This document shows, one piece after another, positions 439 through 10,661 of a stretch of 24,000 bases of DNA (position 1 is its first letter; every line of letters begins with the position of its first letter). The DNA is taken from assembly GCA_963600165.1 (NCBI GenBank), contig CAVCAV010000002.1:15146-39145 (forward strand), written 5' to 3'. Made by a program: the position numbers and the translations under genes. The stretch comes from Christensenella sp. UBA1685. Lineage in GTDB: Bacteria; Bacteroidota; Bacteroidia; Bacteroidales; Bacteroidaceae. The notes below the pieces were generated by a model. The model did not search any database. It worked only from the letters and a program-made list of their open reading frames with translations, and had not been told where the DNA came from.

Positions 439-1470
439 TTATCGTGTGGCTGAAGTTTCGGTCATGGAGAGCGACGTGAGGAGATACTGGGCATTGAGCG
501 TTGCCACGCACTTGTAGGAGCCGAACGTCTTTCCTTCGTTGTCGCGTTCAATGTATTGGTCAACGGTGAAAGTGGCCGTGTAGCCGCCGTCGCCGTTTTG
601 GCGCTTAATGTCCATGTCGCGGTTTACCACGAAACGGCAACTTTCGATGTGCTCGTTGAACATGCCGTTGATGGCGCTGACGACTTCCGCCTTCGTAGCG
701 TTCTTCTGGTGAAGGAAGGTGGTCATCGTGGATGCGATGTTGGAGCAGATGAGCGTTTCGTCCTGCGACTGGAATCCCTTGAAGAATTCGGTGCAGACGT
801 TTGTCACTTCTTCTTGTTCGGAATCGGAAAGCTGATTGTCCTTGATTTGAGTCTGGGCAATGGAGGCTTCTGAAGCATAGCGTCCGTCGGGGTGGGCGTC
901 CATGTACTGCTGGTAGGCATCAGGCGTTCCTAACTTTTGTGCGGTAATCCAGTCGAGAGAGTCGATCTTGATGTCGCACAAGCGTCCGTATTTGTCGCTC
1001 TGATAGGTGTTCTTGAAGTTCTTGAAGTCGTTGACCGTTCCGTTTACGGCGATGCCGTTCCAGGCCTGAATCATTTCGTTGAGGGTGTTGAGACGGTTGC
1101 GTACCTCATCGGCATGGGCACCGTTGGGGTATTTCTCCAAGTATGCCTCGTAGTCTTCGGGATTGTCGTTGTCCTCAAGCGTGTAGTACATCGTTTGCTC
1201 GTCGTCGGTATTTGTCAACGAATAGTAAGCGAATCCGCCTGCACCACAAAGAAGCAGAACGACTATTACGATGATACTGATAATAAGTCCTTTATGGCTC
1301 TTTTTCTCGGGAGGCAGAGGACTGCCCGGAATGGGCTGCTGCTGAGTGGGAGGATAGGGCGGAACAGGATTGGGCGCTTGTCCTGCGGGAACTTCAGGAG
1401 CGGGAGGAACTTGCTGGTGAACGGGTTGTTGAAACCCAGCTTGTCCAGTTGTATTGTTGTCTGTTTGCAT
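439..1470 (-). CDS. Hypothetical single-pass membrane protein: Pro/Gln-rich N-terminal tail, one TM helix, ~260-aa C-terminal domain
   Basis: 343-aa ORF. The N-terminus is PPAPEVPAGQAPNPVPPYPPTQQQPIPGSPLPP, followed by the TM helix GLIISIIVIVVLLLCGAGGFAYY. The motif Y-x2-Y(L/M)-x2-(Y/H)P(N/D)G-x-(H/Y)A occurs twice (YEAYLEKYPNGAHADE and YQQYMDAHPDGRYASE). It lies 9 bp downstream of the preceding ORF. Confidence 0.7.
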   Translation of the reverse strand: MQTDNNTTGQAGFQQPVHQQVPPAPEVPAGQAPNPVPPYPPTQQQPIPGSPLPPEKKSHKGLIISIIVIVVLLLCGAGGFAYYSLTNTDDEQTMYYTLEDNDNPEDYEAYLEKYPNGAHADEVRNRLNTLNEMIQAWNGIAVNGTVNDFKNFKNTYQSDKYGRLCDIKIDSLDWITAQKLGTPDAYQQYMDAHPDGRYASEASIAQTQIKDNQLSDSEQEEVTNVCTEFFKGFQSQDETLICSNIASTMTTFLHQKNATKAEVVSAINGMFNEHIESCRFVVNRDMDIKRQNGDGGYTATFTVDQYIERDNEGKTFGSYKCVATLNAQYLLTSLSMTETSATR

Positions 1471-1479
1471 AAATCAAGT

Positions 1480-1701
1480 TTAGGGCTTGTTCTTGTGCCG
1501 ATTGGCTCGGCGTTGTCTGATGTCGGCTTTCTTCTTGGCAGAACCAGAACCGTGAAGACCTGTAATGTAGGTCTTCTTTTTGGCTTTGGTCTTTACCTTG
1601 TCTTCTTTGGGCTTTTGCTTGAGCTTTGCGCCCTTGAAGGTGATGCCGCCCATCATGGCTTGCGTGATTTCCTCGTCGCTGGCTTTTCGGTCGGTTGTCA
1701 T
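1480..1701 (-). CDS. Hypothetical small Lys-rich basic protein (73 aa)
   Basis: The ORF is MTTDRKASDEEITQAMMGGITFKGAKLKQKPKEDKVKTKAKKKTYITGLHGSGSAKKKADIRQRRANRHKNKP. It abuts the next gene with a 9-bp gap and has no recognisable family. Low-complexity composition makes the coding status uncertain. Confidence 0.4.
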   Translation of the reverse strand: MTTDRKASDEEITQAMMGGITFKGAKLKQKPKEDKVKTKAKKKTYITGLHGSGSAKKKADIRQRRANRHKNKP

Positions 1702-1800: not shown

Positions 1801-2982
1801 TCAATGGTGGAAGAGTCGGATGCCGGTGAATGACATGGCCATGCCGTATTTGTCGCAAGTGGCGATGACATGGTCGTCGCGGACGCTGCCGCCGGCTTGT
1901 GCAACATACTGTACACCGCTCTTGTGGGCGCGCTCGATGTTGTCGCCGAAGGGGAAGAAGGCGTCGGAACCGAGAGCCACTTCGGTGTTCTTGGCTATCC
2001 ATTCTTTCTTTTCTTCTGCGGTGAGCACTTCGGGCTTTTCGGTGAAGAACTGCTGCCATGCACCGTCGGCCAACACGTCGTCGTGGTCTTCGGAGATGTA
2101 GATATCGATGGTGTTGTCGCGGTCGGCGCGGCGGATTTTCTCTACCCAGGGAAGGTTCATTACCTTCGGGTGCTGGCGGAGCCACCAGATGTCGGCCTTG
2201 TTGCCGGCAAGACGGGTGCAGTGGATGCGGCTTTGCTGTCCGGCGCCGATGCCGATGGCCTGGCCGTCTTTCACGTAGCAAACGGAGTTGCTCTGCGTAT
2301 ATTTGAGGGTGATGAGGGCGATGCGGAGGTCGCGTTTGGCTGCTTCCGTAAATTCCTTGTTTTCGGTAGGAATGTTCTGGAAGAGTTCGTCGGAAGTGAG
2401 GTCAATCTCGTTGCGTCCCTGCTCGAACGTTACGCCGAACACCTGCTTATGCTCAATGGGAGCGGGGCGGTAGTTGGTGTCCATTTTGAGGATGACGTAC
2501 GTACCCTTGCGTTTGGCACGGAGTATTTCCAAAGCCTCGGGGGTATAGTCGGGAGCAATGACACCGTCGCTGACTTCGCGTTTTATCAGGAGAGCCGTAG
2601 CGAGGTCGCAGGTGTGGGAGAGGGAGATGAAATCGCCGTATGACGACATTCTGTCGGCACCGCGGGCGCGGGCATAGGCGGAAGCAATGGGAGTGAGGGG
2701 TTCCGTGATGTCGTCAACGAAATATATCTTGCGGAGCGTGTCGCTGAGGGGAAGGCCAACGGCAGCGCCGGCGGGTGAAACGTGCTTGAACGAAGCGGCA
2801 GCGGGGAGGCCTGTGGCTGCGCTGAGTTCGCGTACAAGCTGCCATCCGTTGAGGGCATCAAGGAAATTGATGTAGCCGGGACGGCCGCCAAGTACTTCTA
2901 TGGGTAACTCGCCCTCTTCCATGTAGATGCGTGAGGGTTTCTGGTTGGGGTTGCAACCGTACTTAAGTGCAAGTTCTTTCAT
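1801..2982 (-). CDS. purH: AICAR transformylase (PurH C-terminal, AICARFT) domain protein without the IMP cyclohydrolase/MGS-like domain
   Basis: The track ORF 1801..3258 is over-extended. The first 92 codons are Arg/His-rich junk overlapping the PqqD gene. The in-frame ATG at 2982..2980 gives MKELALKYGCNPNQKP...FKHVSPAGAAVG...GGSVRDDHVIATCDKYGMAMSFTGIRLFHH. This matches the PurH formyltransferase-domain hallmarks (LRYGENPHQ, KHxNPxG, GGSxRD...FTGxRxFxH). Length is 393 aa. Confidence 0.88.
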   Translation of the reverse strand: MKELALKYGCNPNQKPSRIYMEEGELPIEVLGGRPGYINFLDALNGWQLVRELSAATGLPAAASFKHVSPAGAAVGLPLSDTLRKIYFVDDITEPLTPIASAYARARGADRMSSYGDFISLSHTCDLATALLIKREVSDGVIAPDYTPEALEILRAKRKGTYVILKMDTNYRPAPIEHKQVFGVTFEQGRNEIDLTSDELFQNIPTENKEFTEAAKRDLRIALITLKYTQSNSVCYVKDGQAIGIGAGQQSRIHCTRLAGNKADIWWLRQHPKVMNLPWVEKIRRADRDNTIDIYISEDHDDVLADGAWQQFFTEKPEVLTAEEKKEWIAKNTEVALGSDAFFPFGDNIERAHKSGVQYVAQAGGSVRDDHVIATCDKYGMAMSFTGIRLFHH

Positions 2983-3026
2983 TGCTTTGTATGGGATAAT
3001 GTATGTGTTCCGAGGTTTTGGGAATA

Positions 3027-3293
3027 TTATTCGGCAATGCCGGCTTCGATGAGCGCCTGGCAAAACTTGTGGACATCGGTTTGGGCTGTTTCGGCATCGA
3101 TGTCGTATTCTGCTGTCAGAGCTTCCACCATTTTGGCTTCGTCGGCCGTGCCTTGTTCTATGAGGCTGAAGATGAAAGCGCCCGTTTCGTTGGACACGTT
3201 GAATTTGGTGTAATCGATGTTGCTGATGCCGTTTGCGAAGATTACCTTTTCGCCGCATACGTCGCGCAGCTCAAATCCGGGTTTGATTTTCAT
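3027..3293 (-). CDS. PqqD-family protein (RiPP recognition element-like peptide chaperone)
   Basis: 88 aa: MKIKPGFELRDVCGEKVIFANG...FNVSNETGAFIFSLIEQGTADEAKMVEALTAEYDIDAETAQTDVHKFCQALIEAGIAE. Size and pattern are those of stand-alone PqqD/RRE proteins: a beta-strand N-terminus, an 'LNETGAxIW' region, a 'Y-D-V/I-D-x-E-x-A-x-x-D-V' region, and a C-terminal 'L-x-x-x-G-L/I-I/A-E'. Confidence 0.8.
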   Translation of the reverse strand: MKIKPGFELRDVCGEKVIFANGISNIDYTKFNVSNETGAFIFSLIEQGTADEAKMVEALTAEYDIDAETAQTDVHKFCQALIEAGIAE

Positions 3294-3317
3294 TGTATGT
3301 TGTATTTATGAACATTC

Positions 3318-3833
3318 CTAAAGTGTGCCATACCGTTTGTTGTCGGCAAAGAAATGGCGGTGGGTGTAGAGGAAGTAGCGGCGCAAGGGGAGAGTGTGCA
3401 TCCAGAAGAAGGAATAAATTCTCCATTTGGCCGAGGTGACGGGCAGTGCCGTTGCGCTTCCTTTGCGGAAGAATGCAGACGCTCTTGCCACTACTTTCTT
3501 TTGTTCCGTTTGTTCCGTGCCGAAAGCGTTGCCGTCGCCACGGAGGGTGATTGATTCGCCTTCAATGCAGACAATGCGGTGGAGTACGAAATTGCCGAGA
3601 GTGGTTTGGGCGAGCACCACATCGCCTACTTTCAGCTCCTTGTTGCCTATGGGTTCGAGCACAATTTTGTCGCGCTTGTTTTCGAGGAACGGGCGCATGC
3701 TAAATCCTTTCGCCACGATGGTCACACTGTGGCCGGCTTCAATGTCCTGACGGATGAACTTGACGAATTCATCGTTGGGAAGCGTGATGACGCGGCTTTC
3801 GTTGGGCGTGAGATTGTGGCTTTGAGGGGACAT
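3318..3833 (-). CDS. S24/S26-family serine peptidase, signal-peptidase-like, with an apparent Ser/His (Sec11/SipW-like) catalytic arrangement
   Basis: 171 aa. It contains G-F-S45-M-R-P-F (G-x-S-M-x-P nucleophile box), VGDVVL, and FVL-H85-R-IV where bacterial SPase I/LexA have K-R. There is no N-terminal TM anchor. The hydrophobic/aromatic C-terminus is WRIYSFFWMHTLPL. Confidence 0.78.
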   Translation of the reverse strand: MSPQSHNLTPNESRVITLPNDEFVKFIRQDIEAGHSVTIVAKGFSMRPFLENKRDKIVLEPIGNKELKVGDVVLAQTTLGNFVLHRIVCIEGESITLRGDGNAFGTEQTEQKKVVARASAFFRKGSATALPVTSAKWRIYSFFWMHTLPLRRYFLYTHRHFFADNKRYGTL

Positions 3834-3870
3834 ATGTCGAATCCGTTGTTATATTGCAAAATATTTGGCG

Positions 3871-4782
3871 CTACTTGCCGTCTTTGGGAAGGTCGGCCAT
3901 GAGCGTTTCGTGGCAAACGTGTGCCGCATCGGCGTCGGGCAGGCAGTTGAGACTGTAGCAAGGAACCTTGTTGCAGATGGTTTCCACTACGTTGCGGATG
4001 CGGTTGGAGAAGTCGCGGTTCCATACCAGTTTGGAAGAAGAGGACCATAGTTCAACGAATCCCATAATGGGTTGCAACTTTTCTATTTCGTTGTTCGGTG
4101 CCTGATGGAGCCGTACGATGCCGCCGAGGGGATACGATTCGTTGAGGTAGAAGTTTCTCTTTCCGCTCCAGGGCGTTCCGAAGATGCGAACGGAGTTGTC
4201 GGGCATGACTCTCAGTGCCGGGTTGTCGTCGTTGAGAATATTGGTTCCGGCAATGTGTTTTACCCACAAGTCGGAGTGGGTGCTTTTCCCTGTGCCGCTT
4301 GTGCCGAGGAACGAAAACGCATAACCTCCATGACACACGGTGGAAGAGTGGATAAGCAACGTGTCGTGTATGATGGCTCCCATGGTGAAAATGAGCATCA
4401 TGGCGTTGTTAAGGCCAAAGGCTTGTTCTTGCTCTGTGCCGCTCAGTGCTATCTCGAAGTCGTTGCACGAGCTTGGGGCATACAGTGTGGTGGCATGCGT
4501 GCCGTTTGCCGTGTAGAGTTTGAACAGCATGCTCCCATTTTTGCTTTCGAAGACTTCCTGGCGGATGTCCATACTGAAGAATTCATGTACGGGTTTGAAC
4601 GTTTCTTCGTTGCAAGCGAAACGGTCTTTTATCTCTACCCTGATTTGGGAGAAGTCTACGCTTTGGTCGTCCGCCTTTCTGCTGAACGGGGCGTAGGAGG
4701 GTAGCAGACGCTTTACGTGCTGTATGTCGCTGGCATTGATGGTGATGCCGATATCGGCGATGGACAGGTGTATCTGGTTCAT
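3871..4782 (-). CDS. HPr kinase/phosphorylase C-terminal-domain-like P-loop protein (putative peptide/protein kinase)
   Basis: 303 aa. LLIHSSTVCHGGYAFSFLGTSGTGKSTHSDLW...ILNDDNPAL resembles the HprK catalytic core (H-[GA]-x-x-V...G-x-SG-x-GKS...DD). The Walker A motif is encoded at 4279-4305. The N-terminal ~140 aa have no recognisable family. Confidence 0.72.
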   Translation of the reverse strand: MNQIHLSIADIGITINASDIQHVKRLLPSYAPFSRKADDQSVDFSQIRVEIKDRFACNEETFKPVHEFFSMDIRQEVFESKNGSMLFKLYTANGTHATTLYAPSSCNDFEIALSGTEQEQAFGLNNAMMLIFTMGAIIHDTLLIHSSTVCHGGYAFSFLGTSGTGKSTHSDLWVKHIAGTNILNDDNPALRVMPDNSVRIFGTPWSGKRNFYLNESYPLGGIVRLHQAPNNEIEKLQPIMGFVELWSSSSKLVWNRDFSNRIRNVVETICNKVPCYSLNCLPDADAAHVCHETLMADLPKDGK

Positions 4783-4822: not shown

Positions 4823-5248
4823 TTATTCTTCGTTGCCGTGGTTGACAGCGGTGAACTTGAAAGCGGTGCTTTCTAGTTCCACTACTTTTCCGGCAGCAGT
4901 TTTCTTCGCAGACTTTCTTACCTTGATGTATTGGTTCTCCAGTTTCTTGCGTGACGTGTTGAAGAATATCACGCTCGTCTGGTGACCAGGATAAATTCCT
5001 TCAAGGTAGGACTTCAGTTGCAGGGTGTAGTTCGTGCGGTCGTTGAGGAAGTGGGTCTTCTTGTCTATGGTGCCGCCGGGAAGAGCGGAAATCTGTGTGA
5101 GGTAGACCGTGGAGTCGGCCAGACTTGTGCTGAAGCCGAAGGCGTAGATGGTCTTTTCGGGCTGACCTGCCGTGCGGGCCTGTATGCCGGTGCTTGCGGC
5201 AAAGAGAGCGGGGAGGACTATTGCGGCAAGTTTGCGGGATATCTTCAT
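4823..5248 (-). CDS. Hypothetical exported protein (141 aa)
   Basis: The N-terminal signal-peptide-like segment is MKISRKLAAIVLPALFAASTGIQA. Composition is ordinary and the gaps to neighbours are 38 and 40 bp. No family recognised. Confidence 0.65.
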   Translation of the reverse strand: MKISRKLAAIVLPALFAASTGIQARTAGQPEKTIYAFGFSTSLADSTVYLTQISALPGGTIDKKTHFLNDRTNYTLQLKSYLEGIYPGHQTSVIFFNTSRKKLENQYIKVRKSAKKTAAGKVVELESTAFKFTAVNHGNEE

Positions 5249-5286: not shown

Positions 5287-5472
5287 TCAGTCGAGGTATT
5301 GGCGCAACTTGAGCAGCGCTTCTTCTGTTTGTTCTTTATTGTATCCTTCGTCCTCGAGCCATTGGCGGAAGGCGTTAAGGGCTTTGGTGTGCATTTGTGC
5401 CTTGCCTGCCCGAAGTCCGCTGGCGTACTGGTGGTAGGGGAGAAGGTTGCGGTTGTAGTTTCCGTCGCTCAT
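5287..5472 (-). CDS. Hypothetical small helical protein (61 aa)
   Basis: MSDGNYNRNLLPYHQYASGLRAGKAQMHTKALNAFRQWLEDEGYNKEQTEEALLKLRQYLD. The sequence is more protein-like than the overlapping plus-strand ORF 5299..5490. It is the first ORF after the prfA-proximal repeat. Confidence 0.45.
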   Translation of the reverse strand: MSDGNYNRNLLPYHQYASGLRAGKAQMHTKALNAFRQWLEDEGYNKEQTEEALLKLRQYLD

Positions 5473-8944: not shown

Positions 8945-9853
8945 TTAGAAATGTCCGCCGCTACCGCCTCCGCCGAAACTTCCTCCGCCGAAGCTGCCTC
9001 CGCCGAATGAACTTCCGCTGCTGCGGCCTGAACCTCCGATGAAGGGTGGGGGGAAGAAGCCTCCGGCGCTGTTGTTGCTTTGGTTGTCGTCTTGAAAGTC
9101 GGTTTTCTGGAAGCCGCATTTCGGACACTGGCGTACCACTTTGATGTAGTAGTTTCCCGTGCTTGCGTTTTGGATGCGTTTGCGGCTGATGCACGTCATC
9201 GGGAAATGCCCGCAGTGCGGACAACGCTTGCGGCGCCGGGAACTGAAGTACGACAAGCCTGCTATACCAAAGACGAAAAAGAGCACAAGTCCGGCGAGGA
9301 AAATGTCGCCATCGTCTGCTTCGTCTTCATCGTCGTAGGAAAGCGACGGGTCTTTGCGGATGTAGCGGTCGATGTCTCTTGCCGTTTCCACCATGGCTTC
9401 GCTCCATTTCCCTTCGCGAAGCAAAGGCAGCATGGTGCGGTTTTCTATTCTTCGGCAGATGGCGTCAGGAAGCGTGCCTTCAAGTCCGTTTCCGGTGATT
9501 ATCTGATAGCTGCGGTCTTTCGATGCAAGTATTACGATAAGTCCGGTATTGTCTTTGGAACCGACGCCGTATTTCCTACCCAGTTCCATACCGAACGTAT
9601 ATGGGGCGTCGCCTTCAAGGTTTTCTACGGCAACGAAAATGGCTTGCACACCTTTTTCGTGTTCCAGGGCGTAGAGCCGGACATTGATGGAGTCTTCCGC
9701 TTCTTGCGAAAGCACGTGGTCGGGGTTGCAGACGTGTTTGCGCTCGTCCTGCAAATAGGGCATGGGCAACGTTTGCGGCGACCATTTGGCAGCAAATGCT
9801 GACAAACTTGCCAACAGACATAACGTGAGTAGTGCGGCTTTGATGTGACCCAT
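8945..9853 (-). CDS. TPM-domain (YgcG-like) membrane protein with a cytoplasmic 4-Cys zinc ribbon and a Gly-rich tail
   Basis: 302 aa. It has a signal peptide, a TPM-type domain (VAVENLEG...GLIVILASKDRSYQIITGNGLEG), and the TM helix IFLAGLVLFFVFGIAGL. These are followed by CPHC...CPKC (encoded at 9116-9223) and the tail GGSFGGGSFGGGSFGGGGSGGHF. Confidence 0.88.
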   Translation of the reverse strand: MGHIKAALLTLCLLASLSAFAAKWSPQTLPMPYLQDERKHVCNPDHVLSQEAEDSINVRLYALEHEKGVQAIFVAVENLEGDAPYTFGMELGRKYGVGSKDNTGLIVILASKDRSYQIITGNGLEGTLPDAICRRIENRTMLPLLREGKWSEAMVETARDIDRYIRKDPSLSYDDEDEADDGDIFLAGLVLFFVFGIAGLSYFSSRRRKRCPHCGHFPMTCISRKRIQNASTGNYYIKVVRQCPKCGFQKTDFQDDNQSNNSAGGFFPPPFIGGSGRSSGSSFGGGSFGGGSFGGGGSGGHF

Positions 9854-9928
9854 GCGGTTTGGCTTTTCGGACGTGCGGCCAGAGAAGTTATTTGTATTTC
9901 AGACTTCAAATGTCCAATTTTTCAAATG

Positions 9929-9936
9929 CAAAGATA
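9929..9936 (-). promoter_or_regulatory. Candidate Bacteroidetes -7 box (TAnnTTTG) for the TPM-lemA... array
   Basis: The minus strand reads TATCTTTG, ~75 nt upstream of the TPM start codon. No well-spaced -33 TTTG was seen. Confidence 0.35.
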
Positions 9937-10625
9937 GTGTTTGAGGCACGAAGATTGAAACGATTTGCAAAGTTTTTGCCCGAAACGGCATCGCTGGCAT
10001 GCTTGCATGGAGATTGCATTCTTCTGTTGGAATCTTCTTTCTGTTATAACAGATGTAAAACGCAGCTGTCTTGGTATGATGTTTGTGTGAACGGATATTA
10101 AGATGAAAATGAACGTCGGAATCTTCAAACTAGAGCGCAAAATATGGGTGAAAAGGTTTTTGCAGGCTACGAAAAGGCATCTCGTGAAAACTCCAAGGCT
10201 TGGAATTTTTACGGGGTGCTTTGGAATTTTTCCTAGATGCTTTACTCTTAAGATAAAATACGTCGTGTAAAACGCCTTTTTAGGACTCAGATAGACTTTG
10301 GTTATGTTGCAAATTGCAAGATTATTTATGAGTGTGCATTATTGTGGAATGGAAAGGGCCCTGAGATTAGCCTGTACGCCGGCGAATGTATGGTCGGAAG
10401 ATTTTACGCTATTCTCAGGGCATTACAGGCTCTTTTATGTTTGCATTCATTCACTCTTTTGCGATGGTAGTGTGATACTATAGAAGCAAACGGTATGTTG
10501 TTCAGACAACGGACGAGGTTGCGATTACATCCAAAATAGCGCCATTCATTTCCCTCGCTCTGCCCCGAAACTGCCCCTGCAAGCGAAAGTTTTGAGCATG
10601 GATGGAGAAATTCCGAAAAATTGAG

Positions 10626-10633
10626 TACTTTTG
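10626..10633 (+). promoter_or_regulatory. Candidate -7 box (TAnnTTTG) for serS
   Basis: TACTTTTG lies 28 nt upstream of the serS ATG. The nearest upstream TTTG (10590-10593) is spaced too far away for a canonical -33 element. Confidence 0.4.
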
Positions 10634-10661
10634 CTCTCAATAATTCAAAATAGTAATAGCA

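Follow-up and report, generated by a model that had tools for sequence, protein, structure and literature searches.

The window analyzed here is a whole 24-kb stretch of DNA from Christensenella sp. UBA1685 (placed by GTDB within the Bacteroidaceae; assembly GCA_963600165.1, contig CAVCAV010000002.1, positions 15,146 to 39,145), the single piece of the source genome that was analyzed, and it carries three closely packed minus-strand genes encoding a P-loop kinase, a soluble serine peptidase, and a stand-alone PqqD-family protein. The spacing between these genes is 37 bp (kinase to peptidase) and 24 bp (peptidase to PqqD), and they form part of a co-directional minus-strand run in which purM, prfA, and two open reading frames (ORFs) of 61 and 141 amino acids (aa) lie upstream of the trio, while a PurH-like gene and a 73-aa Lys-rich ORF lie downstream. 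This arrangement is a reduced, Prevotella-type version of a wider cassette, comprised of the 141-aa secreted protein, the kinase, the peptidase, and the PqqD protein; by synteny, the closest named neighbors are Prevotella sp. CAG:891-like genomes. An earlier, sequence-only reading of this DNA had described the trio as an orphan peptide-modification cassette, and the three minus-strand genes, the two gaps, and the motifs it quoted agree with the coordinates and the sequence. The genes are:

4782..3871, minus strand: kinase gene, 303-aa ORF, P-loop kinase of the PEPCK/HprK superfamily
3833..3318, minus strand: peptidase gene, 171-aa ORF, soluble serine peptidase with an S24/S26 fold (modeled)
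3293..3027, minus strand: PqqD gene, 88-aa ORF, stand-alone PqqD-family protein
4823..5248, minus strand: secreted-protein gene ("lip," our own label), 141-aa ORF with an N-terminal signal peptide
5287..5472, minus strand: 61-aa ORF, 38 bp upstream of the 141-aa gene and after prfA

Kinase, peptidase, and PqqD-family proteins

The kinase is built of a beta-rich domain at the N-terminus (about residues 1-115) and a nucleotide-binding domain at the C-terminus, and its sequence contains the motifs LLIHSSTVCHGGYAFSFLGTSGTGKSTHS...NDDNP (in a second rendering, LIHSSTVCHGGYAFSFLGTSGTGKSTHS...NDDNP). Across 21 kinases, the residues H145, S147, S162-G-x-G-K-S-T-H-S170, N184-D-D-N-P188, and G202-x-P-W-S-G-K208 are invariant, corresponding to a Walker A motif, the H-x-S upstream of it, N-D-D-N-P, and G-x-P-W-S-G-K. 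The precomputed annotation of this protein and its relatives is PF27840 ("ScmC"); our Pfam scan of the kinase, made with a copy that lacks the PF27840 model, gave no match. An AlphaFold2 model of the kinase (predicted local distance difference test, pLDDT, 94.5) was searched with Foldseek, and the top 50 PDB matches are all phosphoenolpyruvate (PEP) carboxykinases, with a best E-value of 5.5e-9 and both domains covered. Among the 21 kinase relatives, weak NCBIfam matches were obtained to HprK_rel_A (21/21), PEPCK (20/21), ScmC (17/21), HprK_rel_B (15/21), and true HPr kinase (5/21, TIGR00679), all scoring far under the models' thresholds (about 1e-6 at best, where 200 bits are required), and the Pfam model Hpr_kinase_C is matched weakly in three of them; the window kinase itself matches neither Hpr_kinase_C nor TIGR00679. 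Because of the PEPCK fold matches and these sub-cut-off family scores, the kinase is assigned to a distinct family of the PEPCK/HprK superfamily, the ScmC family, and not to HprK/P. The description of the protein as HprK-like in the sequence-only reading is thus right for the superfamily P-loop fold and wrong for the HprK family. The window kinase resembles HprK/P in its P-loop (G-x-S-G-x-G-K-S), the His upstream, the D-D motif downstream, and the PEPCK-like nucleotide-binding fold, but differs in its N-terminal domain and in a gene context unrelated to carbon catabolite control. Bacteroidetes are not generally known to have a phosphotransferase system or HPr.

The peptidase contains the motifs KGFSMRPF, with Ser45, and VLHRIV, with His85. 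In 86 peptidase domains, G43, S45, M46, H85, R86, G99, D100, G101, N102, and E107 are invariant, while Lys124 is retained in 46 of the 86, and a weak profile match to Staphylococcus aureus SpsB (E 0.21) sets His85 opposite the Lys of the K-R pair. Because Ser45, His85, and Asp100 are invariant, Lys124 varies, and His85 aligns with the SpsB lysine, the alignments support a Sec11-like Ser/His/Asp enzyme with a putative Ser45/His85/Asp100 triad, and not a Ser/Lys dyad. Matches to the archaeal and bacterial signal peptidase I models are sub-threshold only (TIGR02228 gives 25.5 bits against a cut-off of 51.85, and the TIGR02227 cut-off is likewise not reached), and NCBI names the relatives "S24/S26 family peptidase." The AlphaFold2 model (pLDDT 78.5 overall, around 90 in the core) has the fold of an S24/S26 beta-barrel, and Foldseek ranks human SEC11A (7p2p_A, E 7e-4) and SEC11C first, followed by lambda cI, LexA, and SpsB. 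The Ser/His, Sec11/SipW-type assignment proposed from sequence is therefore borne out by both the invariant residues and the structural matches.

Resemblance to the S26B signal peptidases of MEROPS (Sec11/SPC18, archaeal signal peptidase I, and Bacillus SipW) extends from the modeled fold and best structural matches to the G-x-S-M-x-P nucleophile box, the conserved Asp in G-D-G-N, and the Ser-to-His spacing of 40 residues, which we take to equal that of yeast Sec11 (Ser44/His83). However, S26B signal peptidases are anchored, with the catalytic domain outside the cytoplasm, whereas the window peptidase has no hydrophobic N-terminal segment and hence no membrane anchor, as had been noted from the sequence. 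Furthermore, it is partnered with a PqqD-family protein, and in 12 relatives the peptidase is fused to the cytoplasmic kinase; these fusions place the peptidase in the cytoplasm. At its C-terminus (residues 135-167) are two helices rich in aromatic and basic residues.

The 88-aa protein is a PqqD-family member, as first proposed from its sequence: it matches PF05402 with an E-value of 2e-14 and 54 bits, against a gathering cut-off of 23.4. PqqD-family proteins are peptide-binding elements in the biosynthesis of peptides that are made on the ribosome and then modified post-translationally (RiPPs). The best NCBIfam matches are two lasso PqqD chaperone models, both under cut-off, with weak matches to ScmD and PqqD_rel_X, and the closest solved relative is the lasso RiPP recognition element (RRE) TbiB1 (5v1u, E 1e-4), with other lasso B1 proteins and PqqD itself next in rank. 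By sequence comparison, the protein is a PqqD-family RRE nearest to lasso-peptide B1 proteins.

Conservation, neighboring genes, and candidate precursors

The kinase scan covered one genome per species and recovered at least 591 stretches with kinase relatives, the best 80 of which were analyzed as species-level loci. These 80 belong to Bacteroidales (Prevotella, Alloprevotella, Bacteroidaceae, Muribaculaceae, Proteiniphilum, and Dysgonomonadaceae) and to Sphingobacterium. An exhaustive representative search, clustered at 50% identity, yields 1,585 kinase clusters at E ≤ 1e-30, 7,685 at E ≤ 1e-10, and 12,056 at E ≤ 1e-3. Hundreds of Bacteroidales species carry the family, among them members of Prevotella, Alloprevotella, Bacteroidaceae, and Muribaculaceae, which are dominant in gut, rumen, and oral microbiomes.

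The peptidase gene is present in 73-74 of the 80 loci and the PqqD gene in 70-71; about 70 keep all three genes in synteny, with the kinase first, the peptidase second, and PqqD third in nearly all cases, so that the linkage anticipated from the window holds in its relatives. The commonest architecture sets the secreted-protein gene before the trio (30 loci), followed by the trio with an ATP-binding cassette (ABC) exporter gene after it (13), the trio by itself (7), and versions with a nucleotidyltransferase gene (7). Among the best 150 kinase representatives are the 12 kinase-peptidase fusions mentioned above, and a single peptidase-PqqD fusion was also found (P0197). Both kinds of fusion argue for a physical complex, and they strengthen the earlier proposal that the trio is one functional unit, whose members would act together as a complex. 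Relative to L162 and L163, two related loci, the ratio of nonsynonymous to synonymous substitution rates (dN/dS) is 0.10-0.12 for the kinase, 0.13-0.17 for the peptidase, 0.07 for PqqD, and 0.11-0.18 for the 141-aa gene; all cassette genes are under purifying selection. At L163 (5548-5720; kinase 82% identical), the 61-aa and 141-aa genes, the kinase, and the peptidase are present, and neither PqqD nor purH follows the peptidase. This absence reflects either a rearrangement or a break in the assembly of a metagenome-assembled genome.

The cassette had been taken to consist of three genes, with the 141-aa ORF listed only as a candidate for co-folding; in Prevotella- and Alloprevotella-like lineages, this ORF is a conserved fourth member. 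It encodes an N-terminal signal peptide, with predicted cleavage after ...GIQA, and then a domain of ~110 aa; it has no relative in Pfam, NCBIfam, or the PDB, and a word-indexed protein search returned seven relatives only. The gene lies immediately upstream of the kinase gene on the same strand in 36 of the 80 loci, frequently overlapping the kinase start by 4 bp, and the outer flanks of this four-gene unit vary (rpoD, prfA, and others). In a reciprocal test, made by scanning metagenomes with a narrow alignment of the 141-aa protein and dereplicating the lineages, the kinase is found right downstream of the 141-aa gene in 30 of 32 lineages. The two remaining lineages have the gene without the trio, and one of them comprises 33 contigs, many of them from human-gut metagenomes; persistence of the secreted protein thus does not require the trio. 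In that lineage (L106, L118, L139, and ~30 similar metagenome loci), HtrA and rpoD precede the 141-aa homolog, and the kinase, peptidase, and PqqD are not downstream of it.

This association raises an alternative, that the substrate of the cassette here is the co-conserved, exported 141-aa protein itself, whose signal-peptide-like N-terminus would be bound, modified and/or cleaved so as to control its maturation or export; the system would then serve protein processing and not make a natural product. The position of the gene upstream of the kinase, kept in both directions of the comparison despite the changing flanks, is what this alternative would predict, and the N-terminus has a classic n-h-c layout ending in small-x-small (AQA, ASA, or AEA), as cut by Sec11-type peptidases. 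Also in keeping with it, the 141-aa gene and the ABC exporter are nearly mutually exclusive across loci, and in loci without the 141-aa gene, the place upstream of the kinase is often taken by a gene for a different secreted protein. However, to judge by the fusions the peptidase is cytoplasmic, and removal of a Sec signal peptide there would prevent export; in addition, two lineages, one very abundant in human-gut metagenomes, keep the gene without the trio. Moreover, more than half of the cassettes have no 141-aa gene, and neither a conserved Ser at the C-terminus nor any other evident phosphorylation site is seen in the protein. We consider this reading unlikely, though it is the main alternative for the substrate in the window.

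That the 61-aa ORF is a genuine, strongly constrained gene is seen from its identity of 90-92% in L162 and L163, against 63-82% for the kinase of those loci, and from a dN/dS of 0.05-0.06; its residues 1-28 are invariant, and every substitution falls at position 29 or later. It matches no Pfam or NCBIfam family. It could be the opening gene of the transcription unit and may be linked to the cassette. As a general precursor it was ruled out, being absent from the other 160+ loci and present only in close relatives of the window.

In other lineages, the cassette can be more elaborate. A profile search of the 80 loci identified an ABC exporter of ~545 aa (ABC_membrane plus ABC_tran) in 29 and an NTP_transf_5 protein (PF14907, E 4e-39) in 7, with the usual order kinase, peptidase, PqqD, nucleotidyltransferase, exporter. 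Candidate precursors were located by a motif search and then a profile search, the profile having been built from the sequences of the same 13 loci in which they occur, out of 44 lacking the 141-aa gene. These are small ORFs of 40-57 aa, of which 5 abut a cassette gene and 9 are within 2 kb of the cassette, and none matches a curated family. They share a layout of (M)KK..Y-x-x-P-x-[LIMS] with an acidic stretch, then [IL]-[ILC]-x-[GA]-S, and then a hypervariable tail rich in Asp, Gly, and Trp, with the Tyr 17-18 residues ahead of the conserved I-L. The candidates of L023 and L059 (both Muribaculaceae) differ by one leader residue and have entirely different tails. With its small residues, x-[GA]-S conforms to the -3/-1 rule for enzymes of the signal-peptidase type. 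Clustering by BLAST of 1,816 small ORFs around the cassettes gave only out-of-frame shadows of neighboring genes, e.g., rpoD. The fuller clusters (e.g., L065, L066, and L008) are compact, with six genes or fewer. The term "orphan," applied to the cassette from its sequence, accordingly holds for the window and fails for relatives with an exporter, NTP_transf_5, or a candidate precursor whose leader has the YxxPxL motif (13 loci).

ORFs with the YxxPx[LIM] motif often adjoin genes for large lipoproteins or cargo of the type IX secretion system (T9SS), as at L008, L023, L059, L065, L040, L058, L076, L010, and L033. In four loci, such ORFs overlap the start of the lipoprotein gene or nearly abut it, at most 21 bp apart. 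Among the domains of these neighbors are Laminin_G_3, F5/8 type C, MBG_2, Fib_succ_major, Lcl_C, and Peptidase_M6.

A second alternative dispenses with peptide maturation: the kinase would act on a small molecule or on another cellular protein, in a housekeeping or regulatory role, with PqqD and the peptidase as accessory partners that have other functions. The kinase structure, which best matches PEPCK over both domains, would suit such a role, as would the setting of a single-copy, very widely conserved cassette among purine, translation, and sigma-factor genes, and most loci have no precursor that we could find. Against this, PqqD-family proteins are known as peptide binders, and the window protein is nearest to lasso RREs; the kinase-peptidase and peptidase-RRE fusions argue for a peptide substrate, and the cassette co-occurs with NTP_transf_5 and with an ABC exporter resembling lasso D. 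We judge this alternative improbable.

The proposed pathway and its relation to lasso and Scm-type systems

We rate the cassette as a putative RRE-dependent peptide-maturation system related to lasso tailoring modules, and the window copy as an ordinary member of a very widespread cassette. The closest parallels are the phosphorylated or glycosylated lasso clusters of paeninodin (Paenibacillus), pseudomycoidin (Bacillus), and bsf (Bradymonas). In lasso clusters, an HprK-like kinase phosphorylates the precursor in a leader-dependent manner and is greatly stimulated by the B1 RRE, while a nucleotidyltransferase can add sugar to the phosphate, with an ABC transporter for export of the product (PMC10368454, PMC8498205, PMC7533575); the kinase and nucleotidyltransferase together yield phospho-glycosylated peptides (PMC8498205). 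The RRE BsfB1 both stimulates the HprK-like kinase BsfK and is required for leader removal, so that a lasso RRE serves kinase and leader peptidase alike, and lasso leaders carry YxxPxL at positions -17 to -12 (PMC10368454). The cassette shares with these clusters a stand-alone PqqD/B1 RRE and a kinase of the HprK/PEPCK superfamily, its fuller relatives carry an NTP_transf_5 nucleotidyltransferase and an ABC exporter, and their candidate precursors have YxxPx[LIM] at about -17 or -18 from the conserved I-L.

Unlike lasso clusters, the window encodes neither an Asn-synthetase-like cyclase nor a B2 transglutaminase-like cysteine protease, and across the 80 loci no recurrent linkage of the kinase to a lasso cyclase, B2, or radical S-adenosylmethionine (SAM) gene was found; a Sec11-like serine peptidase occupies the protease position instead. 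The window kinase scores under every curated HprK model, the candidate substrates have no conserved C-terminal Ser, and the window version has no N gene, no D gene, and no match to the precursor profile.

A further parallel is found in the cassettes described in silico by Haft, namely SynChlorMet (ScmC/ScmD with the radical-SAM proteins ScmE/F) and the HPr-rel-A system (TIGR04352/TIGR04353), in which an HprK/PEPCK-like kinase is likewise paired with a PqqD-family protein; the window kinase itself falls in PF27840 ScmC. In contrast to SynChlorMet, radical-SAM/SPASM maturases are absent from the window and are not recurrent near the kinase in related loci, and an S24/S26 peptidase is added. The SynChlorMet and HPr-rel-A systems are themselves not known to have been characterized.

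Functions homologous or analogous to lasso K, B1, N, and D, together with a peptidase in place of B2 and no cyclase, lead us to favor a pathway in which the RRE guides both phosphorylation and leader removal on a ribosomally made substrate, with a linear product. It would be carried out by a cytoplasmic three-protein machine consisting, across Bacteroidales, of a PqqD-type leader binder, an ATP-dependent kinase, and a Sec11-like peptidase. In our estimate, this joint proposal has an even chance of being correct. The PqqD protein would bind the N-terminal leader of the substrate and present it to the kinase, which would phosphorylate a hydroxyl group, and the peptidase would then remove the leader after a small-x-small site, with the S26-type enzyme standing in for the B2 cysteine protease. 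In other lineages, the NTP_transf_5 enzyme may decorate the phosphate, and the ABC exporter would remove the product, which would be linear since there is no cyclase. Soluble Sec11-like serine peptidases are not known to act as RiPP leader proteases.

Several observations weigh against RRE-guided maturation of a small peptide. The precursor profile finds nothing in the 24-kb window or in any of about 116 window-type loci, and adding four further loci without the 141-aa gene, in which it also finds none, brings the overall count to 13 of 48 such loci. The candidate precursors lie beside surface and T9SS-cargo genes, and might belong with those genes instead. In some loci (e.g., L163), PqqD is not adjacent to the kinase and peptidase genes. 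The cassette sits amid housekeeping genes, with conservation far more uniform than is typical of RiPP clusters, and the window encodes neither an exporter nor a nucleotidyltransferase; it also has no lasso cyclase, B2 protease, radical-SAM enzyme, or YcaO, so that the absence of both a core RiPP enzyme and an exporter, noted from the sequence, holds throughout the 24 kb.

A third alternative is that the trio is an inactive evolutionary remnant of a lasso-type cluster that had lost its cyclase, protease, precursor, and exporter. Its gene set does resemble the accessory genes of phosphorylated lasso clusters (PMC10368454, PMC8498205), and the window version has neither an exporter nor a precursor-profile match. 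However, dN/dS values of 0.07-0.17 are not those expected of a remnant, the catalytic residues are invariant in the 86 peptidase domains and 21 kinases, the four-gene order is kept in 30 or more species with variable flanks, and lasso cyclase and B2 genes are not recurrently linked to the kinase in the 80 loci. We regard a remnant as very improbable; the fusions, invariant catalytic residues, and purifying selection make both it and the non-peptide role less likely than RRE-guided maturation.

A more specific form of the favored reading, which we advance only tentatively and which is rather doubtful, is that the cassette represents a new class of ribosomal peptide pathway that is very widespread among Bacteroidales of the gut and mouth. 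Precursors with YxxPxL leaders would be read by a B1-like RRE, modified by a PEPCK-like kinase (with NTP_transf_5 in some lineages), released by the Sec11-like peptidase, and exported as a linear product by the ABC transporter, while the window version would be derived and have another substrate, possibly the 141-aa protein.

Our search of the full-text literature, which included a Bacteroidales RiPP-mining paper and two RRE-discovery papers, found no description of the cassette, in line with the impression from sequence that no characterized pathway has this composition; databases name its components only, as "PqqD family protein," "S24/S26 family peptidase," "hypothetical protein," or ScmC. 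If RRE-guided maturation is correct, S26B enzymes would be a new type of leader peptidase for RiPP biology, and the lasso kinase/RRE/nucleotidyltransferase/exporter module could function without a cyclase. The cassette would then point to phosphorylated peptides, or to a protein-maturation step, in major human commensals.

Other features of the window

Downstream of the trio, the following minus-strand genes were delineated:

1801-3258, minus strand: PurH-like (AICARFT_IMPCHas) gene, a mechanical 485-aa ORF that, as called, overlaps the PqqD gene
1480-1701, minus strand: 73-aa Lys-rich ORF, just downstream of the PurH-like gene
439-1470, minus strand: 343-aa protein, N-terminus rich in Pro and Gln, a single transmembrane segment, uncharacterized C-terminal domain

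The true start of the PurH-like gene is most likely at 2982 (MKELALKYGCNPNQKP), giving ~393 aa as in the relatives L162 and L166. The family matches of the 343-aa protein are weak and non-significant only, and the 73-aa ORF has no family assignment; the latter is conserved at the corresponding place in L003, L004, and L162, and probably also in L166, where there is a 72-aa gene. The remaining genes of the window are of housekeeping type: SerRS, RuvX, Def, a tetratricopeptide repeat (TPR) protein, a glycoside hydrolase family 2 (GH2) beta-galactosidase, PyrB/PyrI, and SHMT.

A role in anti-phage defense was rejected, as PADLOC returned no matches. Matches in a promoter and terminator scan, made with a tool that does not cover Bacteroidales promoters, were no more frequent than in shuffled sequence. 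No Rfam families or tRNAs were found in the window, including the ~800-bp intergenic region at ~9850-10660. This region is low in GC (0.43-0.44) and separates a minus-strand block (1-9.8 kb) from a plus-strand block (10.6-23 kb); the sign of the GC skew flips across it, consistent with a coding-strand effect at a divergent junction.

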